IMG/VR virus record: IMGVR_UViG_3300045988_176431
Span: 128,001 to 192,000 of that record
Strand: one strand, 5' to 3'
Length of the DNA: 64,000 nt
From: a virus
Shown here: piece after piece, positions 3,520-64,000 of the stretch
Layout: each line of letters begins with the position of its first letter
Position numbering within the stretch: the first letter of the stretch is position 1
Notes under the pieces: generated by a model
Seen by the model: the letters and a program-made list of their open reading frames with translations, nothing else
Told to the model about the DNA's origin: nothing
Databases searched by the model: none
Program-made: the position numbers and the translations under genes

Positions 3520-3520
3520 T

Positions 3521-17277: not shown

Positions 17278-17360
17278 ATGACTTTCTATGTATTGACAGT
17301 ATCTATATTTCTATAATATTTTTGACAAATCCTTAACGTAAAAATAGTGAGGTGAATAAA

Positions 17361-48890: not shown

Positions 48891-48913
48891 TTTTATTCTC
48901 ACCTACTTTCCTT

Positions 48914-49548: not shown

Positions 49549-51264
49549 CTAAGCTTCTGGAAAATTGTCTACGACTACTGACGTATTTATCAAGCGTTGA
49601 CGGGCATAAAAAACCAGTTCATCAGGTGTTACTGGAACACTTCCTGTAACATATCCACAGTCTGGACACACAACATTCTTAACACTAAATTCTACACCGT
49701 ACTGAGCAATACATTTCTGATAGATAGCAGAAATAATTTCAATATCAGTAGATGGCGTAAACTCAGCCAAAATATTAAGCATCTTCATACCGTTTGTAAT
49801 TCTACGATATTTTCCTGATTTTGTTGGAATATTGATCGCACGAACAACCTGAAGTAAGAAACTAAGTTCAACACGAACATCATCAAATTCTTTTCCTTCT
49901 TCTTCAGCTTCTTCTTCCTCTTCTTTCAATCGATTAATAACTGAAAGTACATTCTCTAAATAATCATACATAGAGATTGGACCAACCTCTAATACATATT
50001 TAGAAGCAGGCAATTTCATTCTTGTTACTTTACGAACATCAGATGTTTCTGCAATCTTAACATATTCTTCATAAGAACTTGCTTCTGCAATCTTTCTGAT
50101 TTCTTCCAAATACTTATCACCAGCAGTATCAAAATCAATCAAAGATCTTGTTAAGAAAGTATGGTTAAACTGTTTACCACACTCTTTCTTCTGACATCTA
50201 AATCCAATAGAATCTTTCTCTGGATTTGTTGCAATCACAAGACCATATGTAGCCAAGTTAAGATCTACGAACGCAAATTTCTTCAAGAAATCATCAAAAC
50301 TTTCAAATGCTCCACAAGAAATATTTGTCATACGTTTGTAAACAACTGTTGCTTTCTTACGCATCTTATCATAGTTCAGATAATCTTCATTATCATTGTC
50401 ATCATAAGCAATTGTAATATCAGCAAGTTCACCCCAACTAAGTCCAAGCATATCTGCTTTGAATCCGGATGCAGGGAACACCATATTCTGTTTAGAAACA
50501 GAAAGCTGATGTTTTTCAATATCATCCATGAAACTCATATCATCGTCATCGTTATTTGCATAATCAACTTCCATAGTTTCCAATTCAAGATTTTCTACCT
50601 CAGTAACATGAATTTCATTAGATTCCGTAATTAATTTATTTTCTTTATCAGTAAACGCAACATCACGACCAAGACCCGTCTTATCAATGATAATATTAAT
50701 CTTAGTCTTACGTTTTTCTGTTTTTTCTAAATCCTCATCTGTCACATCTTCTGCTTTCATTGTGACAGGTTCTTTGGATTCTTCTTCTTTAATTTCTTCC
50801 TCTTTAAGCTCTTCTTTCTTTAATTCATGAGCAACTTCACGAGGAATAATATATTTTGCATCCTCTGGTACAATAACATTACCATTTTCATCAACTGTAA
50901 CAGAATCAATTTCAGACATCATTTCTGCATCTTCACCTTGATTTCTCGGTTTACGAACAATAGTAACAAGTTTTGCTTTTTCAGTAGTTTCATTTAATTC
51001 ATTAACTTTTTCTTTTACATCTTCATCACGTTCTGGTGTTTCGAAGACATTTTTAAGAGGAGCACCCTCTTCTTGAGATGCTTTCATCTCTTCATCCGTT
51101 GCAACAATGCCTGGTTGTTTATTTTTAATTGCTTCATCAATTGGAAGTACCTCTTTTTCTTCATTAACAGGTGTTTCCTCTGTATTACTCATCAAACTCT
51201 GAAGATTTAAGGTACTATCTTTTTCTACTTTAATTTCTTCATTTTTTGTTTCTACTTCTGACAT
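49549..51264 (-). CDS. hypothetical protein with acidic N-half and Cys-pair zinc-ribbon-like C-half
   Basis: 571-aa ORF with 'CQKKECGKQF' and 'CPDCGYV'. Confidence 0.65.
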   Translation of the reverse strand: MSEVETKNEEIKVEKDSTLNLQSLMSNTEETPVNEEKEVLPIDEAIKNKQPGIVATDEEMKASQEEGAPLKNVFETPERDEDVKEKVNELNETTEKAKLVTIVRKPRNQGEDAEMMSEIDSVTVDENGNVIVPEDAKYIIPREVAHELKKEELKEEEIKEEESKEPVTMKAEDVTDEDLEKTEKRKTKINIIIDKTGLGRDVAFTDKENKLITESNEIHVTEVENLELETMEVDYANNDDDDMSFMDDIEKHQLSVSKQNMVFPASGFKADMLGLSWGELADITIAYDDNDNEDYLNYDKMRKKATVVYKRMTNISCGAFESFDDFLKKFAFVDLNLATYGLVIATNPEKDSIGFRCQKKECGKQFNHTFLTRSLIDFDTAGDKYLEEIRKIAEASSYEEYVKIAETSDVRKVTRMKLPASKYVLEVGPISMYDYLENVLSVINRLKEEEEEAEEEGKEFDDVRVELSFLLQVVRAINIPTKSGKYRRITNGMKMLNILAEFTPSTDIEIISAIYQKCIAQYGVEFSVKNVVCPDCGYVTGSVPVTPDELVFYARQRLINTSVVVDNFPEA

Positions 51265-51290
51265 AATATAAATCCTACCTTTCTATATTT

Positions 51291-51710
51291 TTATGCAAAT
51301 GATGATTGCATAATTTCGTAATTATAAATTACATTATTTTTTGCACCACTTGTAATACCAATCACCAATATATTATTAGCGACTTCTTCTGCTGTTGGAG
51401 CAACGATTAATAATGTAGTTTTACCATCTTCATTTTTTACTACCTTTACATCAATATCACCAGATTCAATATCACTAGTTAATAATGAACATTGTAAAGC
51501 AATTGCTGATTTTATTGCTTTTTCATCAATTGAATCTTCAAATTGATAAAAATATCGTTGAAGATTCAATCCTATTTCAGGCATTGATGGAAAACATCCC
51601 GGCTTACCAAAACATATCATAAGTAATGTATTAATAAGCACATCATTTCCTTTTAGCATTTTTGGTGCATTGAAATCATTTAAACCAAAGACTGGTTCAT
51701 TATAAGTCAT
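51291..51710 (-). CDS. possible gp25/GPW-like baseplate wedge protein
   Basis: 139 aa. 'ICFGKPGCFPSMPEIGLNLQRYFYQ' resembles the 'T..GER...P.FG..l..l.F' core of GPW_gp25. Confidence 0.4.
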   Translation of the reverse strand: MTYNEPVFGLNDFNAPKMLKGNDVLINTLLMICFGKPGCFPSMPEIGLNLQRYFYQFEDSIDEKAIKSAIALQCSLLTSDIESGDIDVKVVKNEDGKTTLLIVAPTAEEVANNILVIGITSGAKNNVIYNYEIMQSSFA

Positions 51711-51820
51711 GTCCTAACACCAACTTTCTTATTTACTTTAATAATATGTAACCATTATTAAAAATAATTAATTATGTGGACATTTCTTTAATATTTAATA
51801 GAAAGTGAAGGTGAATATAA

Positions 51821-52606
51821 ATGTCTAGTAAAAGAAAGATAAAATGCAAATTTTGTGATGCATTTTTTTATAATTTAGACGATTACGCCTCCCATGTAGA
51901 AAAATATCATAAAGATATGATGCGAAATGATATGACTCCCAGACAATTTGTCTATTTTCTAGTAACCGGAAAAGAACATGGAAGTTGTATCGTATGTCAT
52001 TCGAATACTTCTTGGGATGAAAAGACAAATAAATATAAAAGATTATGTGGTTCGAAAATTTGTCATGATAAATATGTAGAAACTTTTCGTAACCGAATGG
52101 TGAATAAATATGGAAAAACAACATTATTAAATGATCCAGAACAACAAAAGAAAATGTTAGCGAATCGAAAAATAAGTGGTGAATATCGATGGAGTACAGA
52201 CCCTCGTATAAAAATCCAATACACAGGAAGTTATGAACACAATTTCTTAGTATTCTTAGATCATATTATAGGAATGGACCCAAGTAATATTATGGCACCA
52301 TCTCCTCATAATTATTTCTATATATATGAAGGTAAAAAACATTTTTATATCCCTGACATTTTTATTCCTTCTCTTAATTTAGAGATTGAAATTAAAGATG
52401 GTGGTGATAATCCAAATACTCATCCAAAAATTGTTGCTGTTGATAAAGAAAAAGAACGATTAAAGGATGAAGTTATGAAATCAAAAGATATCCCATTTGA
52501 TTACATAAAAATTGTGAATAAAAAACATATTCGGTTCTTAGAGTATTTAGATTTATCAAAACAAAGAGATTTAAAGAATGAAAAGAATAAGATTGTGTTA
52601 ATATAG
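51821..52606 (+). CDS. zinc-finger plus PD-(D/E)xK-like nuclease
   Basis: 'CKFCDAFFYNLDDYASHVEKYH' (C2H2-like), a second Cys/His cluster, then 'YIPDIFIPSLNLEIEIKDGG' (D...ExK). Confidence 0.5.
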   Translation: MSSKRKIKCKFCDAFFYNLDDYASHVEKYHKDMMRNDMTPRQFVYFLVTGKEHGSCIVCHSNTSWDEKTNKYKRLCGSKICHDKYVETFRNRMVNKYGKTTLLNDPEQQKKMLANRKISGEYRWSTDPRIKIQYTGSYEHNFLVFLDHIIGMDPSNIMAPSPHNYFYIYEGKKHFYIPDIFIPSLNLEIEIKDGGDNPNTHPKIVAVDKEKERLKDEVMKSKDIPFDYIKIVNKKHIRFLEYLDLSKQRDLKNEKNKIVLI

Positions 52607-52625
52607 AAAGGTGGATAATAAAGAA

Positions 52626-53774
52626 ATGGAATTAAAAAATAAAATGATAATTGATATTTCAACAGAAGAATATAATTTACCAAAATTAAAAGAAATGCTT
52701 GTGAATGGTGATATATCAATCTATGATTTAACGACTCTTTACCCGATGTTTAAAGAGACGACACGATCCTCTTTAAATTTAGGAATAGCAAATTTCCTTA
52801 AAACTGAATCAAATAATAAAGAGGGAAGACTTCATATCATGCCAAATCACATCATAACAAAGAAACTTATGAAATATCTTAAACCTAATGTAGAAGAAAT
52901 TAAGGTACAAGACCATGTAACTTATGGTAAAATTATATTAGAGACATTCTCTAAAATTATAGAAGAAATTAAAAATTTTTCAAAACCTTGTCAGATATTA
53001 TTTAACGAGGCAATCACTCATTCATGTACATCCATTGAAAAGTTATCAAAAGTAGTCAATACATTACTAGAATCTTATGAAAAAATGGATGATGTTGAAC
53101 TTAGTTTTACAATGACAGAGATGATTCCATATAAATTACACCAATATTATACATGGTTTAAATTAATCAATTGCATACCAGGAAGTATTATAGAAACATC
53201 TGGAATTAATGTAGTTTGGGATCAAATAATTAACTTAGATTCAAATAAAAAAAATGAAATTAATTATGGTTTAAATACAATTGATTACTTCATTAAATTT
53301 TCTGAAAAATCAAAGAAAGCTCTTTCTAGATTTTTTAAATTTGAATACACAGGAGATTATTCAGATAAAGATGAGAATGAAGAAAAAATAATATCAAATT
53401 TATTTGGAAAAAAACCTAAAGATATTGATGAATCTGGTATTCGAAAAACCAATATAACAAAACCTTTGATTGAAGATATATTGGAAGAAAAAACAGGAAA
53501 AGAATACTCTATTACATTTGATATTGATGAAAATCAGTTATATCATATCAAAAAAGATTTAAATATTGATATTCATGGAGATTACTTTAAAGCAGATAAT
53601 GGTTTTTGTTATCGTCATTATATTATGGATAACTCTGAACTTGTAACATTATTTAAAATAATTGATGATGATAAAGTTTATGGTATTAGATTCATTAAAG
53701 ATGGAATTAGACTTTACCAATTTAGATTGAATAAAGATAAAAAATATTATTTTGATGAATGGGGATTGGAATAA
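52626..53774 (+). CDS. hypothetical protein
   Basis: ATG 52626 behind SD aaaggtgga. Confidence 0.6.
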   Translation: MELKNKMIIDISTEEYNLPKLKEMLVNGDISIYDLTTLYPMFKETTRSSLNLGIANFLKTESNNKEGRLHIMPNHIITKKLMKYLKPNVEEIKVQDHVTYGKIILETFSKIIEEIKNFSKPCQILFNEAITHSCTSIEKLSKVVNTLLESYEKMDDVELSFTMTEMIPYKLHQYYTWFKLINCIPGSIIETSGINVVWDQIINLDSNKKNEINYGLNTIDYFIKFSEKSKKALSRFFKFEYTGDYSDKDENEEKIISNLFGKKPKDIDESGIRKTNITKPLIEDILEEKTGKEYSITFDIDENQLYHIKKDLNIDIHGDYFKADNGFCYRHYIMDNSELVTLFKIIDDDKVYGIRFIKDGIRLYQFRLNKDKKYYFDEWGLE

Positions 53775-53779
53775 AAAAG

Positions 53780-53816
53780 AATTTGAGAAGTATAGATTTT
53801 CTATACTTCTCAAATT
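53780..53816. terminator. bidirectional terminator
   Basis: 16-bp stem aatttgagaagtatag / ctatacttctcaaatt. Confidence 0.75.
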
Positions 53817-53819
53817 TAT

Positions 53820-55040
53820 TTATCCTTCATATCCTTTCGGATACCAACTTACAATTAATTGTGAGTTATCTGGTATTTTATAATTTGTAATATACTTCTT
53901 AATTTGGAGTAATTGAACTCGATATCGATTCAATTGATTCTCCGAATTTGGGATAATATATTTTTTTGCTATTTTTGGATTATCCATAATAGAAAGATAA
54001 TATTCAATCATATCAAGTTTACTATTAATATATGACATAAGCATAATCTTATCATCAATGGATTGGATATCCTGTGATTTCATAGCTACATAGTCAATTT
54101 CATTTTGATTAACTGGTTTCAATTTTTTCTTTCTAATGTCAAGGAATTCTGTCATATAAGAATCCTCAATAATAGAATCTATTTCATTATTTACAGACTC
54201 GTATAACCACTCGTCAGTATAAGTAGTTTTCTGAAATGGGTTACAAATATCATTAATAAGTCCATTTACAGTTTCTGTCATATACATATCTTCTGGTAAA
54301 CGACCTGTAATTTCTTCATAACTTTCTTTCACCAATTTTGCTTTTCGTTTTTGAAGCATTTCAATTGATTTTTTCATATAATCAGTTGAGGTGGATAAAT
54401 TCTCACGAGATAATCCTCTTTGCTCAATCTTTGTCATTGCCGAAATCAATTCATTCAAATATCCATTTTTAACAGAGAATTGATCAGCTTTCAATTCTTT
54501 TTTTAAATCTGTTCTTGTATTACCATAAACACAAGCATTGATAAGTGGAATTTGAATCATCTTTTTAAACATTTTTTGTTTTAAGATAGATTTTGACTGG
54601 AACGGCATTGATACAAATGAGTATTGAATAACCATTTTGATTCTGGTTGGAACAGAATCTGTACAAACAACATGACCAATCTCATGTAATAATAAAGCAG
54701 ATAATTCTCTATCTGTAAATGAATTATCTAATACTCGTTCATCAATTTCAATCGTCCATTTATTACATTTTTCCCATAAATCTGTAATTGTTTCTTTTTT
54801 ACTCTTTTCATTTAAAAGATTAGATGTAATCTTATCTAATGCAGATTGTTCTGGAATAACAGACATAACAAAAGAATATTTTCGTTCTTTTGTTTTGATA
54901 ATTTTCACAGTAAAATCTTTTTTATATATCTTTTTTAAAGTGACCTCAAGTTTTTTAATGGCGTCTTCTTTTTTCATTCCATTTTTTAATTCACTAAAGA
55001 TTGCTTCAAATTCTTTTTTGTCTTCTGGAGATAATTTCAT
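53820..55040 (-). CDS. HExxH zinc-metallopeptidase-like protein
   Basis: 'SALLLHEIGHVVC'. SD ggtggtg and promoter motif upstream. Confidence 0.55.
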   Translation of the reverse strand: MKLSPEDKKEFEAIFSELKNGMKKEDAIKKLEVTLKKIYKKDFTVKIIKTKERKYSFVMSVIPEQSALDKITSNLLNEKSKKETITDLWEKCNKWTIEIDERVLDNSFTDRELSALLLHEIGHVVCTDSVPTRIKMVIQYSFVSMPFQSKSILKQKMFKKMIQIPLINACVYGNTRTDLKKELKADQFSVKNGYLNELISAMTKIEQRGLSRENLSTSTDYMKKSIEMLQKRKAKLVKESYEEITGRLPEDMYMTETVNGLINDICNPFQKTTYTDEWLYESVNNEIDSIIEDSYMTEFLDIRKKKLKPVNQNEIDYVAMKSQDIQSIDDKIMLMSYINSKLDMIEYYLSIMDNPKIAKKYIIPNSENQLNRYRVQLLQIKKYITNYKIPDNSQLIVSWYPKGYEG

Positions 55041-55080
55041 TTTTACACCACCATTTCTTTTTAATTATTTTCGAATCTAT

Positions 55081-55097
55081 ATTAAACTAATGTTTTT
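55081..55097 (-). promoter_or_regulatory. A-tract/ACA promoter-like motif
   Basis: AAAAACATTAGTTTAAT, 51 nt upstream of ATG 55040. Nearly identical over about 27 nt to the copy at 28681. Confidence 0.6.
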
Positions 55098-55109
55098 CAA
55101 TAAACAATG

Positions 55110-55362
55110 AATAGAAAAGAGAACTGAGTAATGTCAGCTCTCTTATGTTCTTAATTCATTCATCCTGCCTTTTTTGTTATCCTCCAGGATGAAGTACCGG
55201 ACAACTTCATCCTAGAAAATAACCACGATCAAATTACAAATAAATAAGGGAGGATAAAGTAAGAAAAAGTATTGTGTCAACAGAGGGACACACAATCCAT
55301 CTTACACAAGTGATTAAATCAACATATTCTACCAGGCTTTATAGAATACGAGACTTTCACAC
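55110..55362 (-). ncRNA. candidate ~250-nt non-coding RNA
   Basis: No ORF over 16 codons with an SD. Promoter motif at 55362-55380 (minus strand). The terminator stem at 55117-55144 is perfect, with one G-U pair, only when read on the minus strand, and is followed by a U-rich tail. Internal hairpin at 55187-55212. Confidence 0.4.
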
Positions 55363-55380
55363 TTTAAGTATATGTTTTTA
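55362..55380 (-). promoter_or_regulatory. A-tract/ACA promoter-like motif with no ORF downstream
   Basis: TAAAAACATATACTTAAAG reads into the 250-nt non-coding unit. Confidence 0.45.
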
Positions 55381-55392
55381 TATTTTAAGGTC

Positions 55393-55430
55393 AAAAAAGA
55401 GATACTAGGAAATTCCTAGTATCTCTTTTT
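55393..55430. terminator. strong terminator after the capsid-candidate gene
   Basis: 17-bp stem aaaaagagatactagga / tcctagtatctcttttt. Confidence 0.8.
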
Positions 55431-55466
55431 AATAGTATTATTTATAAGGTATTCAATCTCATTGGA

Positions 55467-57194
55467 TTAAACAAAATCTGCATTATCAAATGCAATATCA
55501 CCCTGAATACCCTGAACATGTGCATTCGTATATCTGGATGTTCCCATCAGATATGTAGCCGAACCACCTGGAAGATCAGGAGAACGATATGCAGAGTTTG
55601 CAGCTGTCATAATATGAGAAGAATATTTCCAATGCTTGAAGGTAATTGTATCCTTCGTTGTTGGGAATGGAATAATTCTCAACGTATTCATAGAAGAAGC
55701 GTTGATCTTCATAGCAGATACAACCTTAACTTTGATGTTTCCGCTTGTCATAACACCATAACTGTAATTCAGTTTAACACCTCCAACAGTATCGCCCTGA
55801 CGAACAACCCAGTTTACATTAGGGTCAAGCAGAGAGATATAACGAGGGTTACCATAAATTACGAATGTTAAATCTTCCAACTTAGCTGTATCAGCTAACT
55901 GGATTAAGAAACGATCAATCGTAAACTTCAACTGAGTTGCAATGAACTCACTTGGAAGTGCAGTTGTAGCGATTGTAGAATCACAATCGAAACGATGCTT
56001 AGCAACAAATGGATTGAAGTCAAGCGGATCTAAAACTGCTCCATCATATTTCTTAAACATCTCATCAAGATAATCAAGTGTCTGACTATCTTCCATCTGA
56101 ACAAGGATGTCGTTCAGATTTACATATGTCTTCTTATACAGATCTTCATTCAGAAGAGCTTTTGCATCTTCCAACTGCTCAAGAGAATATGGAATATCTG
56201 TACGGAATCCATCTTCAATCTTCCACTCCATGTCTTCACGAGTGTAATCCCAAGTTACAGCTCTTTCATTCTTTTCGTTTGAAAGATATCCTGTGAAGCT
56301 TACACCTTTAATCTGACCAGATGCAGAAGATAATGTAATTTTATTTGTTACAAAGTCACAGAAACCTGTTACGATATCGTTAACAGTAACATCCTCTTTA
56401 GTTTTGTTCTGAACTTTAACATCACGGATTACTCCGCCTACCCACTGACCATCTGCAAGATTTACAGTCATAGGTCTCTTAAGAACAACTTCTGTTCCAT
56501 CTTCAAGATAAACTTTATCAATCTGAATATTGATTGTAATGTTTTCACGTGTTGGGATAGAAGCATCTGTAAGTTCATCAATGATATCATAATCAAAGAG
56601 AGGAAGATTTACCTGCTTAGTATTAATCGGAAGACCTTTACCAGCTTTGAAAATCTCTTTATATTCATCATTGAAGAAGCACTGTGGGTACTGCCATCTC
56701 TTCTGTGTCTTAGGGTCAACTACCCATGTACGCTCAATCTGTTTCTTGATTACTGGAGATTTTGTAATCTCAGTATCAACAATGGCTTTCGAAATACATT
56801 TTGCATGAGAACGAACAACCAACGGCAAATCTACAGACTTAACAGGTAACAAGTTACCAACACGTGTAGACTCCATTACAAGGTCATTTACTGTATTATC
56901 ATACAACTGAGAAACTTCTTCGTATAAGTTTCCAGGTGTCAATTCACCATCTTCTCCTACAGACTCATTATAGAATCCAGACAGAAGAGCATCTTTAAAA
57001 GTATCAATCAGTTCCTTGCTTTTGATAAACGTGTTTACTTCTGTTTTGTAATCACAAGCACCGGATACTGCGTTTGCAGCTTCAGTAAACAAAGAATCGA
57101 AATCATTTGCAGATTGATTCATACTGAATCCGCCTACTGTGGCAGTTTCTTCGAAATTACTACCACTCTCGGTTAAAAATGGTAATCCATTCAT
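55467..57194 (-). CDS. putative major capsid protein
   Basis: 575 aa. ATG 57194 behind SD aaaggagtga, promoter motif 36 nt upstream, strong terminator. Codon usage is shifted to C-ending codons. Preceded by an acidic scaffold-like gene. Confidence 0.5.
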   Translation of the reverse strand: MNGLPFLTESGSNFEETATVGGFSMNQSANDFDSLFTEAANAVSGACDYKTEVNTFIKSKELIDTFKDALLSGFYNESVGEDGELTPGNLYEEVSQLYDNTVNDLVMESTRVGNLLPVKSVDLPLVVRSHAKCISKAIVDTEITKSPVIKKQIERTWVVDPKTQKRWQYPQCFFNDEYKEIFKAGKGLPINTKQVNLPLFDYDIIDELTDASIPTRENITINIQIDKVYLEDGTEVVLKRPMTVNLADGQWVGGVIRDVKVQNKTKEDVTVNDIVTGFCDFVTNKITLSSASGQIKGVSFTGYLSNEKNERAVTWDYTREDMEWKIEDGFRTDIPYSLEQLEDAKALLNEDLYKKTYVNLNDILVQMEDSQTLDYLDEMFKKYDGAVLDPLDFNPFVAKHRFDCDSTIATTALPSEFIATQLKFTIDRFLIQLADTAKLEDLTFVIYGNPRYISLLDPNVNWVVRQGDTVGGVKLNYSYGVMTSGNIKVKVVSAMKINASSMNTLRIIPFPTTKDTITFKHWKYSSHIMTAANSAYRSPDLPGGSATYLMGTSRYTNAHVQGIQGDIAFDNADFV

Positions 57195-57220
57195 TTTTTT
57201 CACTCCTTTAATTTTCATTT

Positions 57221-57237
57221 TATTATTTCTGTTTTTT
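57221..57237 (-). promoter_or_regulatory. A-tract/ACA promoter-like motif
   Basis: AAAAAACAGAAATAATA, 36 nt upstream of ATG 57194. Confidence 0.55.
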
Positions 57238-57320
57238 CACATCTTTTTGAACCCTCAGATTCAAATAATAAAATAGACATTACTTTGGATTTCTTTTATT
57301 TATATGTTTTATCATAAGAA

Positions 57321-58196
57321 TTAAGTTTTAGATTTAATTTCATTTAATCTTATCTTTTTTAATATCTGTAAAATAAGATTAATACTAGTCATAATTCTCT
57401 GATAGAAAAACATAGATTTTGTGAAACTTGATTTTGCAAATTTCATAATCATGTAATCCTTCATAAGTTCTTTTATTTTTATCAATTTGATACTGAGTTC
57501 TTTGTATTCTCTGTTTAATTCTCCATCATCAGATGTAATAGTATTGATTTCATCAATATATTCATCTAAACTTGTATAAACGTTTTTAAACTTCTGATAA
57601 AGATTGTATTTATACATTTGCTCTACTTTATCATCTTCTCCTTCTCCGGATTGATCTTCTCCTTGATCTGGTGTTTCAGAATCTGTTGTTTGAGCTTCTC
57701 CTTCCTCTCCACCATCTTCAGGAGGATTATCAGCATCTGCTGTGTAATCTTCATCATCCGTTATTGGTTCATCCGGAGTTCCTTCCTCTCCACCATCTTC
57801 TGGTGTTTCAGAATCTGTTGTTTGAGCTTCTCCTTCCTCTCCACCATCTTCAGGAGGATTATCAGCATCTGCTGTGTAATCTTCATCATCCGTTATTGGT
57901 TCATCCGGAGTTTCTTCCTCTCCACCATCTTCTGGTGTTTCAGAATCTTCCGGAATATCTGTATCTGAATAATCCTCTTCATCAGTTATTGGTTCTTCTG
58001 GAGTATCAACTTCTTCGTCATCATCCATTGTTATCTCAGAATCCTTTGTATAATCTCGTCTTCTTTTATCTGATAACTTTAAATCAATAACTTTCATATT
58101 TGATGGTTTTGAATCATCTGCTTCTTGAAATAAATTATATTCAAAAAAAGGAGATAACTTTTTACGTGTATCAACTTCAACAACCATATCAATCAA
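57321..58196 (-). CDS. highly acidic repeat protein (scaffold-like?)
   Basis: 291 aa. The D/E/T/P-rich centre contains a 44-aa tandem repeat; the C-terminus is helical. Confidence 0.65.
   Translation of the reverse strand: MIDMVVEVDTRKKLSPFFEYNLFQEADDSKPSNMKVIDLKLSDKRRRDYTKDSEITMDDDEEVDTPEEPITDEEDYSDTDIPEDSETPEDGGEEETPDEPITDDEDYTADADNPPEDGGEEGEAQTTDSETPEDGGEEGTPDEPITDDEDYTADADNPPEDGGEEGEAQTTDSETPDQGEDQSGEGEDDKVEQMYKYNLYQKFKNVYTSLDEYIDEINTITSDDGELNREYKELSIKLIKIKELMKDYMIMKFAKSSFTKSMFFYQRIMTSINLILQILKKIRLNEIKSKT
57670..57955. repeat. 132-bp tandem repeat, about 2.2 copies, in frame
   Basis: 'ggtgtttcagaatc' recurs at 57670, 57802 and 57934. The protein reads PEDGGEEG.PDEPITDDEDYTADADNPPEDGGEEGEAQTTDSET twice. 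Confidence 0.9.
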
Positions 58197-58202
58197 CCCC
58201 TT

Positions 58203-60446
58203 TTAAATGAAATTACTATTCAATTGTACACGATGCTTCTCAGCCGTTAATTTATCTTTGATTCTCATCAATTTATATTTTTCCTGCTGATCACCGTTTG
58301 CGTTTGCATCATTAATCTTTTCTTCACAAATGCGAATTTCAGTCTCTAATTCACGTGTTAATTCATTACGGATTCTTCTATCTTTATCTTTTGAAAAATG
58401 ACGAATTAACATAGCAAATGGAAGAGAGGATAATTTATATCTAGCAGCTCCACCATATAAAAGAGCCCACTTCGCATTTCTAAAGATTTTATGACGATAT
58501 CCAGGTTTTAAGAAAAATTCTTTTCGTCTTTTTACATCCATCTTATTAAAAGAATCTGTAAACTTTTTAACAGAATTTAACCAACCTTTTGGACCAGCCA
58601 TAATAGCTTTACCAGCATTTTTTAATTTTGTATTTTTTTCTTGACGAATTCCACGTTTCTGTTGACGTGCAGCTTCAGCATCAATTGCTTTGTTTTGAAT
58701 TTTGGTAGGGAGGTCTTCTTTTGGTTTTTGTGGTTTTACATTGGTTTTCTCTTTATCACCATGAATCTCTCTTCTAAATTCTTCAACTTCTTCATCTTTA
58801 TCTTTCGATGCTTCCACATATGCACTATCTATATAATATTTACTTGTTTTACGTACCTGAACATATATCTCAAATACAGGAATTCTATCAATAGTTTCGT
58901 CATTATATGTAACTTTGAAATCATTATCATATTTTTGGAATTTTTCTTTAATTTCTTTTTTTATATCTGCTATTTTTGTATCGGTTAGTGATTCTTTTTT
59001 AAAAGTACCAACCCATAAGCCTATACATTTTCCTTTGTAAAAATCTTCATTTATTTTTTCAGGATTATAACCATTTTCACATTTTAAGTTAAAACTTTTC
59101 ACAATATTCATTATAGTATGAAATGCATTTTTTCTGGCATCATAATTTTCTTTATTTGCTTCTTTCCAGTCTTTTCTTATTTTATTACCATCTTCATCAT
59201 AATCAAATAATTCATCTTCTTCTGATTCAGATTTCTTAACTGCATCTTCTTTTGCTTTTTTCTTTTCTTCTTCTTTCTCATTCTTTTCTTTTTCAATCTG
59301 TTTTTGTGTCATAATATGTTTTTTAATAACCGAATCTGGTTCTCCATTATCAGTCCATTCCATCATCGCAATGTCAGATGAAATATCATCAATATAATCC
59401 TCATACTTTTCTACAATTTCAGATACTTCATCTTCATCATCATGAGAAAGAATTTCAAAATCACGACAAGACTCATAGTAATTCTTTAATGATTTCAAAT
59501 AATCATATTTTTTGCATTTATTGATATCATTTACAATAGAATCTCCTGTTGTACATTCATAGATATCTTCTAAAGCAGCAGTCAATCCCATAAAATGATT
59601 CGTTGATTCTGTATAGGTTAATTCAGGTTTTTTAAGTCCAATGCTTATTAATCCTTTAATATAAATCTTTGTATTAAATGGCATTGTATCAATACGTGAC
59701 ATAACTAATTCATCTTTTCCAATAATGGATACTGCTCTTGCAGTATCCATTTTATATCTTTCAATATCAATAGAACTAGAATCGCTTACTATACCTGGTT
59801 GATTATCTTGATTATCATAAACGGCAGATCTAGCAACATGCCTTACAAGGTCTTCTAATAAATATGCACGAGTATATCCATTGACTAGAAAATATGCGAA
59901 TAAAGTAATTCTTGTATTTGGTTCAATACAATAAATAACGACTGAATTTATTATATCAGTTAATTCTTTTTCACATCCTGTTTCAGATATTTCATAAATA
60001 TAATCAAATACAGTATTTAGCATCTCTTCTCCACCACTTTTACAAGCAATCATTGAAAGATTTATTGTATTCTTTAATACTTTAAGTTCATCATCCAGAA
60101 TTTCTTTTATCTCATAATATAATCCAGTACCATTATCATAATCCATATTAAGTCCGTTACATTTATTAATTTTCTCCTCCACAATTGTTTGCACTGATGC
60201 TATTTTATGAAAAGGAATAAAATTATTGTTTACAATATCAAGAATGAATCTTGCTCCAAAATAACACCCTTCCGAAAGAATTAATGAAAGATTCTTAAGG
60301 ATAAATGACAAAGATTCATCTTTATACGTATTATAAAATTCTTGAGCGGTCTCTTCTGTATAATTCTTCTTCAATTCTTCATATTTTTTATCGAATCTTT
60401 TTTGAGGAGTCCCATTAAGAATTTCATCTTTATTTAAGATACTCAT
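58203..60446 (-). CDS. large hypothetical head-module protein
   Basis: 747-aa ORF with promoter-like motif 43 nt upstream. The C-terminus is basic and helical. Confidence 0.7.
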   Translation of the reverse strand: MSILNKDEILNGTPQKRFDKKYEELKKNYTEETAQEFYNTYKDESLSFILKNLSLILSEGCYFGARFILDIVNNNFIPFHKIASVQTIVEEKINKCNGLNMDYDNGTGLYYEIKEILDDELKVLKNTINLSMIACKSGGEEMLNTVFDYIYEISETGCEKELTDIINSVVIYCIEPNTRITLFAYFLVNGYTRAYLLEDLVRHVARSAVYDNQDNQPGIVSDSSSIDIERYKMDTARAVSIIGKDELVMSRIDTMPFNTKIYIKGLISIGLKKPELTYTESTNHFMGLTAALEDIYECTTGDSIVNDINKCKKYDYLKSLKNYYESCRDFEILSHDDEDEVSEIVEKYEDYIDDISSDIAMMEWTDNGEPDSVIKKHIMTQKQIEKEKNEKEEEKKKAKEDAVKKSESEEDELFDYDEDGNKIRKDWKEANKENYDARKNAFHTIMNIVKSFNLKCENGYNPEKINEDFYKGKCIGLWVGTFKKESLTDTKIADIKKEIKEKFQKYDNDFKVTYNDETIDRIPVFEIYVQVRKTSKYYIDSAYVEASKDKDEEVEEFRREIHGDKEKTNVKPQKPKEDLPTKIQNKAIDAEAARQQKRGIRQEKNTKLKNAGKAIMAGPKGWLNSVKKFTDSFNKMDVKRRKEFFLKPGYRHKIFRNAKWALLYGGAARYKLSSLPFAMLIRHFSKDKDRRIRNELTRELETEIRICEEKINDANANGDQQEKYKLMRIKDKLTAEKHRVQLNSNFI

Positions 60447-60477
60447 TTATAATTACCTCACTTTCTTCTTAAAAATT

Positions 60478-60494
60478 CTTATGTATTTGTTTTC
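60478..60494 (-). promoter_or_regulatory. A-tract/ACA promoter-like motif (weaker A-tract)
   Basis: GAAAACAAATACATAAG, 43 nt upstream of ATG 60446. Confidence 0.45.
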
Positions 60495-60519
60495 TTACCA
60501 TTTTTGCATAATTCTAATC

Positions 60520-60538
60520 AAAAAACAATACTCTAATG
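60520..60538 (+). promoter_or_regulatory. A-tract/ACA promoter-like motif
   Basis: AAAAAACAATACTCTAATG, 43 nt upstream of ATG 60570. Confidence 0.55.
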
Positions 60539-60569
60539 AAAATATATTATTTTTAAAGGTGGTGAAAGC

Positions 60570-62852
60570 ATGGCAACTGAAAGAGATTTAAATGTTTCTT
60601 TACATAAAAGAGAAACAAATGAAGTCTTAAATCTTTATCCAGAAACAAAGACAGAAAATGTTCATGTTACAGATGAACAAACTCTTGATAAATATTTATC
60701 ATTACAAAATAAAATAAATGAATCTTATTTAAAAGATTCAAAAAAATTAAGTCAAATAGAAGATGGAGCTCAGAAAAACCAGAATGCTTTTTCTGCAGTA
60801 AAATCAGGAAATTTTTTAGTAGAAGCATCTAAAGCAAAAGATACTCTGGAACTTATTGCTGGTAGCAATATTTCTATTGATATTATTGATGATAAGATTA
60901 CTTTTAATGCAGGTAAAACAGATGTTACAAAAGCAGATGCTACAACAGATGGTCTGATGAGCAGTAAGGATTATAAAAAACTTCAAAATATTGAAGAAAA
61001 TGCTAATAATTATGTTCATCCATCATCTGGTGTAGTTCCTAATACTTATATTCGTGTAACTGTAGATAAGAATGGTCATGTAACAAAAGGAAATAATGAT
61101 GTATTAAAAATTTCTGAGGGTGGTACTGGTGTAAGTACATTATTAGAACTTAAAAATTTAATTGGTTCAGGTAATATTGATATGGAGTATTCTGTTAAAG
61201 AAAACTCGTCAAATCCTGTTACATCATCAGGTATTTATAAAGCGTTACAGGAAAAAGCGAATACGAATCATGGAAATCATGTTCCAGATAGTTCAGATTC
61301 ACCTGATTCTTTTTCTTTCTTAAAAGAAGGAAATGTATGGGAATCAATTCCAAGTGGAAATACTTCACAAAAAGGTGTTATTCAATTAACAAATGAAATT
61401 GGTGATAGTGAATCTTTAGGAGTAAGTCAAAAAGGGTTAAAATCACTATCAGACTCCATAACAACAAAGATTGATAGTTTAAAAGGAAGCCCTGAATCAG
61501 GATTAGATACATTAGAAAAAATCGCAACTCGAGTTAATACAAATAGTACAGAATTAAGTAATCATACAAGTAATAGTACAATTCATATTACTGCTGATGA
61601 AAGAAAGAAATGGAATGCTAAGTCAGATGTTAAATTAGATACTGAATTATCTAATACATCTACAAATGCTATTAGTAATAAAGCAATAACAGATGCCTTA
61701 ACAACTCATACAAGTAATAGTACAATTCATATTACTGCTGATGAGAGGACTAAGTGGAATGGTATTTTAGAAAAAGCAAAAGCATATACTGATGAGAAGT
61801 ATGGTTCTATTGACAAAATAGATTTTTATGTGATTGAATCTGGTACTCATGAATCAATCACATCTCCATCTAATTCATTAATTTATTTAGAGAAAGCATC
61901 TTCAGGAACACAATATGAATCATGGATTTACAGAGATAAATGGATGAATATCGGCTCTGATGATTTAAATCTTGATAATTATTATAATAAAACTGAAGTT
62001 GTCAATTTAATCAATAATTCAAAACTTACAGTAGACACTGCTTTATCTTCTACTTCTGAAAATCCTGTTCAGAATAAAGTAATTAATTCTGCATTAGGAA
62101 ATAAAGCAAATAGTAGTGAATTAAGTACTCATACAAGTAATACTACAATTCATATTACTGCTGAAGATAGAAAGAGATGGAATGATGCTGCATCTAGTAC
62201 TGTTACAGTAGATACTACTTTATCTAATACATCTACAAATGCTATTAGTAATAAAGCAGTAAAAGATGCCTTAGATAATAAAGCAAACAATACTAACTTA
62301 ACAAATAAAGTAGATAAAGTAAATGGAAAAGGATTATCTACAAATGATTTTACAAACGCATTAAAATCTAATTATGATAATGCATATGCACATTCAACAA
62401 GTGCTCATGCACCATCAAATGCTGAAAGAAATGTAATATTAGGTATTCAAAAGAATGGGATTGATATAACTCCGAATACAAGTACGCGAAAGGTAAATAT
62501 TACAGTTCCCAAAAAAATAAGTGAATTATCAAATGATTCTGGTTATATAAGCAAGCACCCATCTGTAGAAACAGAGCCAGATACATCATCAAGCAAATCA
62601 ATCAATATAAAAACTGGAGATTCATTTGATGTAGTTGATTCAGTAACAAGAGATTCAAATGGTCATGTAACAAAGATAAATGTAAAAACAGTTACTGTAC
62701 CAAAACATGATAACTCAGGTGGAGGTGTTGTTAGAAGTAAAACAGCTCCAAAGGATACAACAGTATTATGGATTGATATTAGCAGTACAAACGAAATTCC
62801 TAAATATTATAATGGAACAGTTTGGATTACATTACCAGCAGTATGGGGGTGA
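60570..62852 (+). CDS. tail fibre protein with repeat modules
   Basis: 'TDGLMSSKDYKKLQNIE' is typical of tail-fibre repeats. 'HTSNSTIHITADERKKWN' occurs three times and 'LSNTSTNAISNKA' twice. SD aaaggtggtga and promoter motif upstream. Confidence 0.75.
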   Translation: MATERDLNVSLHKRETNEVLNLYPETKTENVHVTDEQTLDKYLSLQNKINESYLKDSKKLSQIEDGAQKNQNAFSAVKSGNFLVEASKAKDTLELIAGSNISIDIIDDKITFNAGKTDVTKADATTDGLMSSKDYKKLQNIEENANNYVHPSSGVVPNTYIRVTVDKNGHVTKGNNDVLKISEGGTGVSTLLELKNLIGSGNIDMEYSVKENSSNPVTSSGIYKALQEKANTNHGNHVPDSSDSPDSFSFLKEGNVWESIPSGNTSQKGVIQLTNEIGDSESLGVSQKGLKSLSDSITTKIDSLKGSPESGLDTLEKIATRVNTNSTELSNHTSNSTIHITADERKKWNAKSDVKLDTELSNTSTNAISNKAITDALTTHTSNSTIHITADERTKWNGILEKAKAYTDEKYGSIDKIDFYVIESGTHESITSPSNSLIYLEKASSGTQYESWIYRDKWMNIGSDDLNLDNYYNKTEVVNLINNSKLTVDTALSSTSENPVQNKVINSALGNKANSSELSTHTSNTTIHITAEDRKRWNDAASSTVTVDTTLSNTSTNAISNKAVKDALDNKANNTNLTNKVDKVNGKGLSTNDFTNALKSNYDNAYAHSTSAHAPSNAERNVILGIQKNGIDITPNTSTRKVNITVPKKISELSNDSGYISKHPSVETEPDTSSSKSINIKTGDSFDVVDSVTRDSNGHVTKINVKTVTVPKHDNSGGGVVRSKTAPKDTTVLWIDISSTNEIPKYYNGTVWITLPAVWG

Positions 62853-62858
62853 TAAAAA

Positions 62859-64000
62859 ATGTTGACAGCAAATGAATTAATTGAATTAAAAAAACTGATT
62901 GATGCACAGATAAAGAGACGATGTGGATATGGACCAATGCAAGAAGTTGGTGATTTCGAAGAAACACCAAAAGCAGGTGGAATTATAAAAGCAGAACAAG
63001 GAGAAAAAATTATTTCTCCCATTCTTGAAGTAGAAGATGTATCGGGATTAACTTTAACAATAGATTCGTATCATACCTCTACAACAAATTTAAAAGCTCA
63101 TATCGAAGTGGGAACTCCAATTCCTAAAAATTTTAATAAAAATTTATTTGATATTGTACATAAGCTATCAGAAGAAACGATGCAAAATCAAGCATCATGT
63201 TGTCGTGGTGCGTGTACAGGACTTTGCTATGGTACATGCTCATCGTTTTGTAGTGGGTGTTCTGGTAGTTGCGGTACAGGTTGTGGGTCAAATTGTACAA
63301 AAACGTGTGGAAATAGTTGTGGAAACTGTACAAGATCATGTACGGCAACTTGTGGAGGAAGTTGTTTTGCTTCATGTGGTGCTGATTGTACTGGAGGATG
63401 TACTGGATCATGTTCTGCAGGTTGTGATGGATGTTCTGGTAGTTGTGGTACTGCATGTACATCCGGATGTACAGGATGCTCTGGATGTTCTAATGGTTGT
63501 ACTGGTAGTTGTGAAAATGGCTGTGAGTTTGGTTGTATACATGGATGTAAAGGCTGTACTGGCACTTGTGGAAATAGTTGTAGTGGTTGTCAAGGATGTA
63601 CTACTGGTTGTTCTGGAGGATGTTCAGGATGTAAGGCATCATGTGGTTCTGAATGTGCAGCATCATGTGGAAATAAATGTACTGGATGTGGTGACAGTTG
63701 TCACAGTGATTGTGGTGGATCATGTTCAAATTCCTGCTCAAATTTCTGTGCTAACGGATGTAATACTTGTTCATCTGGTTGCACAGGTGGATGTACTGGG
63801 CATTGTTATGGATGTACAGGTACTTGTGGTAATACTTGTGGTGGAGGATGCGGCTCTACATGTTCAAGCAGTTGCATTGGTTGTTCTGGATGCGGTGGAA
63901 CATGTTCTTCTAGTTGTGGTGGATGTACTACGACGTGTGACCATAGTTGTTCGGGATGTTCTGCAAGTTGTGGTGGATGTGACGGTGATTGTGCGAATTC
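62859..64000 (+). CDS. Cys-ladder repeat protein (3' end outside window; absent from ORF track)
   Basis: ATG 62859 lies 7 nt after the tail-fibre stop. Hand translation gives a normal ~112-aa N-terminal domain. About 270 residues then carry about 70 Cys, mostly at C-x3-C spacing (e.g. CTGSCSAGCDGCSGSCGTACTSGCTGCSGC), and the frame is open to the window end. Confidence 0.8.
   Translation, partial: MLTANELIELKKLIDAQIKRRCGYGPMQEVGDFEETPKAGGIIKAEQGEKIISPILEVEDVSGLTLTIDSYHTSTTNLKAHIEVGTPIPKNFNKNLFDIVHKLSEETMQNQASCCRGACTGLCYGTCSSFCSGCSGSCGTGCGSNCTKTCGNSCGNCTRSCTATCGGSCFASCGADCTGGCTGSCSAGCDGCSGSCGTACTSGCTGCSGCSNGCTGSCENGCEFGCIHGCKGCTGTCGNSCSGCQGCTTGCSGGCSGCKASCGSECAASCGNKCTGCGDSCHSDCGGSCSNSCSNFCANGCNTCSSGCTGGCTGHCYGCTGTCGNTCGGGCGSTCSSSCIGCSGCGGTCSSSCGGCTTTCDHSCSGCSASCGGCDGDCAN

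Follow-up and report, generated by a model that had tools for sequence, protein, structure and literature searches.

A phage cysteine-ladder protein encoded after a tail-fibre-like gene is a probable substrate of a CXXX-repeat-family radical SAM maturase

Radical SAM/SPASM maturases have been studied as makers of small-peptide natural products. Among them, the CXXX-repeat system pairs enzymes of the TIGR04115 family ("radical SAM peptide maturase, CXXX-repeat target family"; curated cut-off 350 bits) with targets described by TIGR04117, a model of short paralogous peptides (~98 positions), and PF27846 (tSAM_targ_Cxxx_rpt). This system is defined in databases only, and a search of the literature on it, or on radical SAM enzymes in prophage tails, returned nothing relevant. 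The SPASM radical SAM enzyme QhpD installs several Cys thioethers in QhpC, the gamma subunit of quinohemoprotein amine dehydrogenase, which stays in the assembly. Phages stabilise or diversify thin virion parts by other means, including the isopeptide chainmail of the HK97 capsid, the axial metal ions of the T4 fibres gp37 and gp12, and the glycine-rich motifs that follow the N-terminal fibre-binding domain of the T-even adhesin gp38. Very Cys-rich short periodic motifs are found in metallothioneins, keratin-associated proteins and the Tenebrio antifreeze beta-helix. In the ranthipeptide systems PapB/freyrasin and CteB/SCIFF, repeated C-x3 motifs are converted to thioether rings by a SPASM radical SAM enzyme, and PapB forms thioethers between Cys and Asp or Glu (PMC9413430).

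Here we analyse a gene at the end of a 64,000-nucleotide stretch (the window) of the IMG/VR virus record IMGVR_UViG_3300045988_176431, which encodes a long ladder of cysteines at short regular spacing. The source contig, a phage scaffold of 254,052 bp (ENA ERZ28573464 scaffold_59, here locus L004), matches the window with 0 mismatches over 13,431 nt and extends beyond it. The relevant features are as follows.

60570..62852, plus strand: upstream tail-fibre-like gene, 760 aa, the first gene of a co-directional block with the ladder gene and the maturase gene
62845..62851, plus strand: putative Shine-Dalgarno-like GGGGGTG, read from the sequence, 7 nt 5' of the ATG and overlapping the end of the upstream gene
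62859..63197, plus strand: N-terminal domain of the ladder protein, residues 1-113, conserved across the family
63198..64000, plus strand: Cys ladder, residues 114-380 in the window; it reaches residue 493 of 500, equivalent to window position 64361, outside the window
L004 12290-13792: the ladder ORF in the source contig, complete with its stop, 500 aa, 105 Cys
L004 16287-17621: radical SAM/SPASM maturase gene with a TIGR04115 match, beyond the window, ~2.5 kb downstream of the ladder gene

The ladder gene is real and complete. Its ATG at 62859 lies 6 nt after the end of the upstream ORF (stop ending at 62852), and the frame stays open for 380 codons to the window end at 64000. The window part encodes 73 Cys, 72 of them in the 268 residues 113-380; this recount bears out the preliminary description of the DNA, which had chosen the same ATG and estimated about 72 Cys in about 268 residues. 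Stops just past the window had been named there as grounds for discarding the gene; in the source contig the frame instead continues for 120 more codons, giving the full 500-aa protein with its 105 Cys and the C-terminus ...CFGNCTGSCYGSLTSI*. The GC content is 0.44 in the ladder versus 0.29 in the whole window, a rise that had also been remarked on; the codons used are TGT, GGN, AGY and ACN. Codon composition accounts for the difference, and a foreign origin of the ladder was rejected as its cause. Tandem Repeats Finder detected short weak arrays only (scores 33-66), in line with the earlier view of the repeat as degenerate at the DNA level.

The ladder opens with the most conserved motif of the family, SCCRGACTGLCYGTC. 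Within the window its cysteines are spaced by either 4 residues (53 times) or 3 residues (17 times), corresponding to C-x3-C and C-x2-C, with no other spacing; the full protein has 104 Cys-to-Cys spacings, 72 of 4 and 30 of 3, and the 77 family proteins together have 2967 and 1625, respectively. Among the 16,909 residues counted across the 77 there is not a single proline, and Gly, Ser and Thr dominate. Asp and Glu, the usual thioether acceptors, are rare in the ladder, and none of its non-Cys positions is conserved in identity. Ladder length in the family varies from ~70 to 495 residues. The nearest relative (L005, 94% identical) differs at 0 of 105 Cys versus 69 of 282 other ladder residues (24%; Fisher p = 3e-11) and at 6 of 113 N-domain residues; 113 codons differ between the two genes while the Cys codons are all kept. 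Across the group of 59-kb phages, the N-domain is 96% identical and the mid-ladder 72%, with many indels.

The N-terminal domain has the consensus MLTAxxxxxLK..RR..GS..YDF..P..GG.I.AE.G.K..PLL..IP..F (alignment A1). Structure modelling and fold searches had been suggested in the preliminary description, where residues 1-112 were taken for an ordinary globular or coiled domain, and the AF2 model agrees: over residues 1-110 most block means of pLDDT fall at 79-96, a single dip reaching 60, and helices are predicted at residues 4-24, 45-58 and 95-105. The ladder itself is modelled at pLDDT 31-49. The N-domain gave no significant PDB match by sequence, profile or fold and no detectable similarity to a known tail-fibre anchor, and it is encoded by none of the isolated phage records in INPHARED. 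IMG/VR yielded 123 confirmed relatives of the domain, and a single-sequence scan of 1.84 billion representatives gave only 33 matches, mostly fragments; two long repetitive proteins among these (P0137 and P0157) look spurious. The domain is either a virion or fibre attachment domain or an element recognised by the maturase system.

The window end has no nucleotide match among GenBank phages, and the protein has none in Pfam, NCBIfam or PDB sequences; its sole PHROG match is phrog_6085, of function not known. Foldseek with the 380-residue window model gave 0 matches in PDB and a single one in BFVD, a homologue auto-named "TNFR-Cys domain-containing protein". Neither similarity to known fibres nor a receptor-binding domain was found by sequence or fold, and no metallothionein-like or disulfide-ladder family or structure was matched. 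Long tandem stretches of the protein have a Cys in every fourth position, as described by TIGR04117 and PF27846. TIGR04117 was matched by neither the 380-aa nor the 500-aa protein (NCBIfam, E <= 0.1); PF27846 is absent from our local Pfam copy, the precomputed Pfam field of the L004 ladder gene holds none ("-"), and the homologues P0002 and P0076 have a "weak" PF27846 match only. The preliminary description knew of no characterised phage tail component with this composition; the repeat type is not wholly new, TIGR04117 and PF27846 having already defined it.

No other ORF of the window contains the CxxxCxxC motif, hence the window holds no maturase gene; one is found further along the source contig. 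Its product scores 496 bits against TIGR04115 (E = 8e-149, model positions 2-359 of 359), above the curated cut-off, and "radical SAM peptide maturase (CXXX-repeat target family)" is the name that JGI/IMG gives to precisely this protein. The SAM-cluster motif lies at C45/C49/C52 and is accompanied by seven SPASM cysteines (C291-x12-G-x4-C309, C359-x2-C362-x5-C368-x2-C371, C390); all ten are invariant across 13 relatives. Among NCBIfam matches PapB ranks second (168 bits, cut-off 340) and QhpD third (97 bits, cut-off 453), with CcpM and the SCIFF maturase also matched. The closest PDB entry is CteB (5WGG), from which the phage enzyme differs in lacking the ~90 N-terminal residues before the aligned region (the alignment starts at CteB residue 93), a separate ~110-aa protein being encoded instead. 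The six active-site positions of CteB given in PMC10288494 were mapped by hand and read Y-I-C-T-I-R in the maturase versus F-F-T-S-H-Q in CteB. The maturase genes of relatives carry inteins at no fewer than three different sites. Inteins tend to persist in genes that an element cannot lose.

The separate protein, here called the accessory protein, has ~110 aa across the family and 111 aa in the window phage. Its profile gave nothing significant against PDB, and a database search with it returned 89 proteins, none functionally named and one with a single Pfam entry.

Enzyme, accessory protein and ladder travel together. The ladder protein has 197 protein relatives; the apparent substrates of the family span 181-968 aa, with up to 145 Cys. 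Of 80 IMG/VR loci found via the N-domain, 73 encode a homologue of the maturase, with E-values of 1e-92 to 1e-222. In nearly every case this gene shares the strand of the ladder gene and follows it closely; in one locus (L064) it lies upstream. In the remaining seven loci the sequence continues little or not at all past the ladder gene. The accessory gene is present in 74 of the 80; it usually ends within ~30 nt of the point where the maturase gene begins, or overlaps that gene. The reverse search, from the maturase into 80 bacterial genome loci, recovered a ladder ORF in 73, the N-domain in 62 and the accessory protein in 68. One ladder homologue, P0002 (locus L001), has no maturase gene within 10 kb. 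Jumbo, sipho-type and PBSX-like myo-type representatives all carry the gene trio, in phages as well as prophages of anaerobic Bacillota, and the spread takes in no fewer than 123 viral contigs and 212 species-representative genome loci.

The genomic setting is a tail module. The window gene is bracketed by two ORFs whose PHROG matches are to tail and tail-fibre proteins, in a block ordered tail-fibre-like gene (760 aa), ladder, 95-aa ORF, 101-aa ORF, tail-fibre-like gene (497 aa), accessory gene, maturase gene and terminator, with intergenic gaps of 6, 34, 15, 3, 15 and 3 nt; four ORFs, including the accessory gene, thus separate ladder and maturase, and the terminator is a 17-bp hairpin directly 3' of the maturase gene. 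The 760-aa protein matches phrog_27373 ("tail protein", 2.6e-12) and phrog_3285 ("minor tail protein"); it has a faint precomputed XkdV_N match and no match in the local Pfam copy. Siphovirus L085 has the order tape measure, Dit, Tal, 793-aa virion protein, ladder, accessory, maturase, with a holin further on. The PBSX-like Desnuesiella prophage L122 has YqbQ, sheath initiator, Baseplate_J, Mu Gp48 and a 368-aa ORF before the ladder, and a 185-aa ORF, accessory, maturase, holin and amidase after it. The ladder gene therefore follows distal tail or fibre genes in all three annotated contexts, as expected of a tail-associated virion protein, and lysis genes follow in two of the three, both smaller phages. 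The tail-fibre setting proposed in the preliminary description is upheld by these orders and by the flanking PHROG matches. The zone between tail-fibre and lysis genes can, in phages, also hold cargo genes unrelated to the virion.

We consider it probable, at roughly 60%, that the ladder ORF is the tail-associated substrate of a phage-borne three-gene modification module (ladder protein, accessory protein and maturase) and that its cysteines are covalently modified, probably to thioethers. The ladder is probably cross-linked chemically rather than held by disulfides or metal, because an enzyme of the CXXX-repeat family is encoded in the same operon and recurs beside the ladder family. The likeness to the database-defined system lies in the long runs of Cys at every fourth residue and in the TIGR04115-family enzyme; the differences from the short TIGR04117 peptides are the 500-aa length, the 113-aa N-domain, the mixed x3/x2 spacing and the phage tail operon. 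In the host cytoplasm and before lysis, the maturase would modify the ladder cysteines by means of its SAM cluster and two putative auxiliary Fe-S clusters. The most likely product would be a series of sulfur-to-carbon (thioether) bridges, as with the nearest characterised relatives PapB, QhpD and CteB, and the result would be a thin, non-reducible chain of small covalent rings. The ladder has few Asp and Glu residues, and therefore the chemistry of PapB and QhpD cannot simply be copied. For the acceptor, a backbone alpha carbon or a neighbouring Cys would be likelier than any particular side chain (in PapB, Asp/Glu), because no non-Cys position is conserved in identity. The comparison with PapB has its limits: its model score lies far under the cut-off, and its acceptor residues are no part of the repeat of the window protein; QhpD, likewise far under its cut-off, acts on another protein in another context and makes only a few cross-links, to Asp/Glu. 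Ranthipeptides differ further in that the substrate here is a large protein and no protease or exporter was found nearby.

A more specific form of this proposal is offered tentatively: the ladder may form the shaft of a tail appendage on the virion, or some other exposed portion of it, with about 100 radical-SAM-made sulfur-to-carbon bridges stitching the backbone and with length and non-Cys positions tuning host recognition in anaerobic gut Bacillota. Already in the main proposal, the ladder protein would be carried on the tail with the N-domain as attachment, leaving the ladder's length and its fast-changing surface residues available for interaction with the host. A role on the virion surface, as suggested in the preliminary description, is plausible. 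Some relatives carry an extra beta-rich C-terminal domain of 136 or 190 aa, which would give them a fibre-like anchor-shaft-tip layout; the window protein has no such tip domain and ends 7 residues after the ladder. AF2 models the C-terminal domain of the relatives at pLDDT 35, and a homologue search with it returned stand-alone copies from the same phage group only and no link to conventional fibres. The proposed ladder resembles the HK97 and T4 parts in that extra bonds would stiffen a thin virion part, and gp38 in the position of its gene after the fibre gene and in having a conserved N-terminal domain followed by a Gly-rich variable region; no sequence or fold similarity to any of them was detected, and to our knowledge none has a Cys repeat or depends on a radical SAM enzyme of its own.

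The best-surviving alternative, which we regard as unlikely, is a RiPP-like cargo, with the N-domain as a long leader and the ladder as the core of a lysis-released toxin, signal or metal-binding factor of benefit to the phage or lysogen. The maturase does come from a family of peptide (RiPP) maturases, and it was from short peptides that the repeat type was originally defined; some loci carry two to five tandem ladder paralogues (L027, L042), as RiPP clusters often do, and ladder-only ORFs without the N-domain exist (L001, L042). However, no leader peptidase or exporter was found among the neighbours scanned with Pfam, PHROG and NCBIfam, the proteins are well above usual RiPP sizes, and the variable ladder positions show no conserved cleavage motif. 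The recurrence of the same slot after distal tail genes in three unrelated tail types, and the folded-looking C-terminal domains of some members, also speak against cargo and for the tail-associated substrate.

An unmodified fibre, laddered by Zn or Fe binding or by disulfide pairing after release while the radical SAM enzyme acts elsewhere, is distinctly unlikely. The composition does recall metallothionein-like and disulfide-rich repeat proteins, an apo chain needing a cofactor or cross-link would be expected to give no confident fold, as is the case for the ladder in AF2, and the enzyme is four genes away in the window phage. Against this, the enzyme belongs, above the curated cut-off, to a family named for exactly such repeats, and the two genes co-travel in nearly every locus searched from either partner. 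The mixed spacing of 3 and 4 and the free indels are at odds with a strictly periodic, registered solenoid, and metallothioneins, keratin-associated proteins and the Tenebrio protein differ in their spacings and partners, share no Pfam or PDB homology with the ladder and have no associated maturase. Bacterial cytoplasm is not known to allow disulfide formation. The named hosts are anaerobic gut Bacillota, in whose surroundings external disulfides would probably be unstable. The disulfide- or metal-laddered solenoid, the redox sensor and the cross-linkable adhesin of the preliminary description, conceived without knowledge of the CXXX-family maturase in the operon, are unsupported as stated.

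It is very unlikely that the protein is an assembly or accessory factor of the tail fibre that the mature virion lacks. Chaperones are encoded directly behind the fibre gene in P2 and Mu, as XkdW/XkdX are in PBSX, and the order of fibre and ladder genes fits the chaperone slot of PBSX-like and Mu-like tail modules, but a hypervariable Cys ladder of 380 residues, a dedicated maturase and fused C-terminal domains would be left unexplained. The chance that there is no gene, or that the real one is a second, Val-rich frame of 400 aa which is also open across the ladder DNA, is negligible: only the Cys frame is continuous with the conserved N-terminal domain and kept in the 197 relatives, its Cys codons survive intact among the 113 differing codons of the nearest relative, and the Val-rich frame is a by-product of composition, so that this reading is already refuted.

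If the tail-associated substrate is indeed cross-linked and on the virion, phages would have the means to assemble, within an anaerobic cytoplasm, appendages that are covalently reinforced and cannot be reduced, and a biological function could be assigned to the uncharacterised CXXX-repeat system. The bridged appendage would then represent a fibrous architecture of a new kind and the first example of a phage structural protein cross-linked by RiPP-type enzymology; the chemistry would be new for the enzyme class, the acceptor not being the Asp/Glu side chain of PapB and QhpD; and peptide engineers may take an interest in such a naturally occurring scaffold, with its dozens of small thioether rings. 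A radical SAM/SPASM maturase is here a conserved part of the tail module in many phages and prophages of gut Bacillota. Cultured carriers of the system include Desnuesiella massiliensis mt10 (L122), Neglectibacter timonensis SN17 (L107), Anaerolentibacter hominis CSJ-1 (L094) and Eubacterium pyruvativorans.

The ladder gene, which starts at ATG 62859 and encodes an N-terminal domain of about 113 aa followed by a cysteine ladder, occupies window positions 62859-64000. Translation of this part gives 380 stop-free codons and 73 Cys, exactly 72 of them within the last 268 residues, in agreement with the preliminary description, which had counted about 72 in about 268. Successive Cys lie 4 residues apart in 53 cases and 3 apart in 17, with no other distance, and the remaining ladder residues are chiefly Gly, Ser and Thr. 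The raised GC content claimed for the repeat was also recovered (0.44 against 0.29 for the window) and is explained by its codons, TGT and TGC (64 and 9 of the Cys codons in the window), GGN, AGY and ACN. The repeat is old and, as had been stated, degenerate in DNA; Tandem Repeats Finder detected weak, short arrays only. The rest of the gene was found, through the 760-aa protein encoded upstream of it, on a metagenomic scaffold of 254,052 bp (ENA ERZ28573464 scaffold_59, hereafter L004), the first 13,431 nt of which are identical to window 50570-64000. There the ORF stays open for 120 further codons before its stop, so the frame is not broken soon past the window, as the preliminary description had allowed it might be. 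The complete gene encodes 500 aa with 105 Cys, only 7 residues following the last one, and we regard it as real with near certainty.

The window phage is a jumbo, contractile-tailed phage with a GC content of 29%. In addition to a replicative helicase gene, its window contains:
3512-5782, + strand: NAD-dependent DNA ligase
17352-19247, + strand: DNA polymerase
42082-44289, - strand: tail sheath
45396-48902, - strand: multisubunit RNA polymerase beta-like protein, fused; the C-terminal part matches a virion structural protein family
55467-57218, - strand: major head protein
With ARAGORN, the 64-kb window yielded no tRNA genes. The largest ORF in the window (1826 aa, 8510-13990, - strand) had no PHROG match at E <= 1e-5, and a 406-aa ORF (53820-55040, - strand) that lies downstream of the major head gene, some 430 nt away, matches Peptidase_M48 at 2e-06, above the Pfam cut-off.

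The ladder gene belongs to a run of co-directional genes that are separated by 6, 34, 15, 3, 15 and 3 nt:
Gene 1: 760-aa ORF with PHROG tail matches
Gene 2: ladder gene
Genes 3 and 4: ORFs of 95 aa and 101 aa
Gene 5: 497-aa ORF matching phrog_7121 'tail fiber protein' (6e-10)
Gene 6: 111-aa ORF, the small protein
Gene 7: 444-aa ORF, the maturase (L004 16287-17621)
A 17-bp hairpin with a T-run stands directly 3' of the maturase gene. Immediately beyond the operon are genes for an SH3_3-domain protein of 297 aa, encoded on the other strand (L004 17667-18560, -), and for a protein with a PARG_cat_microb (microbial poly(ADP-ribose) glycohydrolase-like) domain (L004 21606-22283, +).

The maturase covers the whole NCBIfam model TIGR04115 ('radical SAM peptide maturase, CXXX-repeat target family') at 496 bits (E = 8e-149; curated cut-off 350), and an identical sequence bears the same name in JGI/IMG. 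It has the CxxxCxxC motif and seven SPASM cysteines, every one invariant in relatives; with every tested feature present, the enzyme belongs to TIGR04115. The same maturase cluster is found on contigs of 249-258 kb from several samples. The next-best NCBIfam families, all far under their cut-offs, are the thioether-forming maturases PapB, QhpD, CcpM and SCIFF maturase. Among solved structures, CteB (5WGG) is the nearest. The approximately 90 N-terminal residues of CteB that stand before its aligned region are missing from the phage enzyme. Substrate recognition may be supplied by the separate 110-aa small protein, which matched no known family or structure in family, PHROG, profile and database searches. 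In several relatives the maturase genes are extended to 570-820 aa by inteins (a Hint domain, often with a LAGLIDADG homing endonuclease), namely L005 14001-16358, L025 11865-14330, L083 4825-7212, L042 17105-19066 and L154 8019-9728. These occupy at least three different sites, near residue 50 (CxxxCxxC), 295 (near the first SPASM Cys) and 360-370 (SPASM Cys cluster); the nearest relative, L005, has one and the window phage has none.

In a database search the 380 window residues matched 197 proteins, which share the N-terminal domain of about 113 aa, the motif SSCRGACTGLCxGxC and a ladder whose length varies. The shortest ladder protein has 181 aa and the longest 968 aa, and one of 650 aa (genome locus L127 5177-7129) has 145 Cys. 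Many relatives match PF27846, named 'tSAM_targ_Cxxx_rpt' in one locus table, and the repeat that defines PF27846 and TIGR04117 is also present in the ladder protein. The ladder protein itself does not match the TIGR04117 model and has no PF27846 match on record, and it is therefore described here as a target of the CXXX-repeat system, not as a member of either family.

The N-domain search of IMG/VR confirmed 123 loci, 80 of which were kept. A close maturase homologue (E = 1e-92 to 1e-222) was present in 73/80; in nearly all of these it comes directly after the ladder gene and shares its strand, and in L064 it lies upstream; the other seven have little or no sequence remaining past the ladder gene. 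The small protein has a homologue in 74 of 86 loci, its gene usually stopping no more than about 30 nt short of the maturase start or overlapping it, and the ladder gene directly precedes the small gene, with none between, in 95 of the 132 loci with a ladder ORF upstream of the maturase. From these co-occurrence and adjacency counts, the core comprises three genes, of which the window phage carries an expanded version. The ladder gene has a dedicated, conserved partner enzyme of a family named for this repeat, with the small protein as a third conserved partner. A maturase search with one genome per bacterial species confirmed 212 loci. The best 80 of these belong nearly all to anaerobic Bacillota (e.g. 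Lachnospiraceae, Oscillospiraceae, Eubacteriales), cultured strains among them, with a ladder ORF beside the enzyme in 73, the N-domain in 62 and the small protein in 68. Isolated phage records contain no N-domain and only two maturase homologues, both from unannotated gut 'Bacteriophage sp.' entries.

Some loci carry several ladder genes: five in a row, including the 968-aa protein, precede a single maturase in L042 (9956-19066), and L027 (9047-19227) has three paralogues of N-domain plus ladder. Relative P0002 (L001 10001-13267, on a 106-kb contig) has the N-domain and a ladder that is broken by an insert of about 100 aa without Cys; its gene is followed by two small ORFs, of 111 and 141 aa, that encode ladder only. 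No CXXX-type maturase occurs within 10 kb on either side; the sole radical SAM gene nearby, a 161-aa ORF adjoining a gene with NRDD and ATP-cone domains, is presumably the NrdG-type activase of that neighbour.

Compared with L005 (249-kb contig), none of the 105 Cys differ, whereas 69 of the 282 non-Cys ladder residues and 6 of the 113 N-domain residues do (Fisher tests, p = 3e-11 and p = 3e-6); constraint on the cysteines is absolute, and the other ladder residues vary. In a set of 77 ladder proteins, successive Cys are 4 residues apart in 2967 cases and 3 apart in 1625, and hardly ever at another distance. There is no proline among 16,909 ladder residues, and no non-Cys position is dominated by a single residue except for Gly before Cys in x2 units. 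AF2, run on a 75-sequence alignment, modelled the N-domain confidently, with block-mean pLDDT mostly of 79-96 (helices 4-24, 45-58 and 95-105) and the ladder at 31-49; Foldseek with this model returned no PDB match and, in BFVD, only a homologue. That the unmodified ladder has no confidently predicted fold fits, without proving, a chain that needs cross-links or a cofactor.

In a group of 59-kb siphoviruses, identity is about 96% in the N-domain and both ladder ends, 72% in the indel-rich ladder middle, and 75% in an extra C-terminal domain. This domain of about 190 aa is sometimes fused to the ladder and in other genomes cut off, by in-frame stops at different codons in L030 and L067 or by a frameshift in L031, with the downstream domain still intact (around 11050-11110 in L029, L030, L031 and L067; proteins P0121-P0127). 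Read-through, frameshifting or two alternative products could be involved. Stand-alone copies of the domain are common, one cluster having 363 members.

The ladder gene lies within the tail module. Siphovirus L085 (59 kb) has, in this order, genes for tape measure, Dit, Tal, a virion protein of 793 aa, the ladder, the small protein and the maturase; its holin gene comes later. The PBSX-like tail module of cultured Desnuesiella massiliensis (L122) has LysM, YqbQ, sheath initiator, Baseplate_J, Mu Gp48, a 368-aa ORF, the ladder, a 185-aa ORF, small protein, maturase, holin and amidase. Together with the window phage, these gene orders show three different tail types with the ladder gene at the same place, behind the distal tail or fibre genes. 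In L086, amidase and holin follow the module.

We propose, with a probability of about 0.6, that the ladder protein is a cross-linked, tail-associated substrate of the co-encoded maturase. Its role as the substrate is very probable. The enzyme would modify the ladder cysteines in the cytoplasm, ahead of lysis. By analogy with its closest characterised relatives, the bonds would be thioethers, a chemistry to which we give even odds; PapB links Cys to Asp/Glu by thioethers (PMC9413430), and CteB serves as the structural prototype for a ranthisynthase (PMC10288494). As no side chain is conserved in the ladder, the acceptor would be no particular side chain but a backbone carbon or the neighbouring Cys. 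The product would be an appendage of the virion tail, attached through its N-domain; that it is a tail component of the virion is slightly more likely than not. CXXX-repeat radical SAM targets as a general kind are already catalogued, and our literature search found no paper on the target/maturase system; what is new is the combination of a large putative protein substrate, a conserved N-domain and a place in the tail module, in jumbo, sipho-type and PBSX-like elements.

A RiPP-like cargo product would suit the enzyme class and the tandem ladder paralogues, but this reading is weakened by the size of the ladder proteins, the C-terminal domains fused to some of them, the position in a structural operon and the failure to find a protease or exporter among the neighbouring ORFs scanned. 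A fibre chaperone would suit the gene order but not the ladder. The preliminary description rightly stressed the tail context and the unusual protein; the unmodified disulfide or metal ladder that it suggested is probably wrong, since it leaves a near-obligate maturase unexplained and fits poorly with the irregular 3/4 spacing and with anaerobic hosts. That the ladder ORF is an artefact is excluded. A Val-rich 400-aa ORF is open across the whole ladder in a second frame of the + strand (L004 12579-13781; window 63148 onward), which we take to be a side effect of composition; with this frame open, a frameshift within the ladder would hit no early stop.
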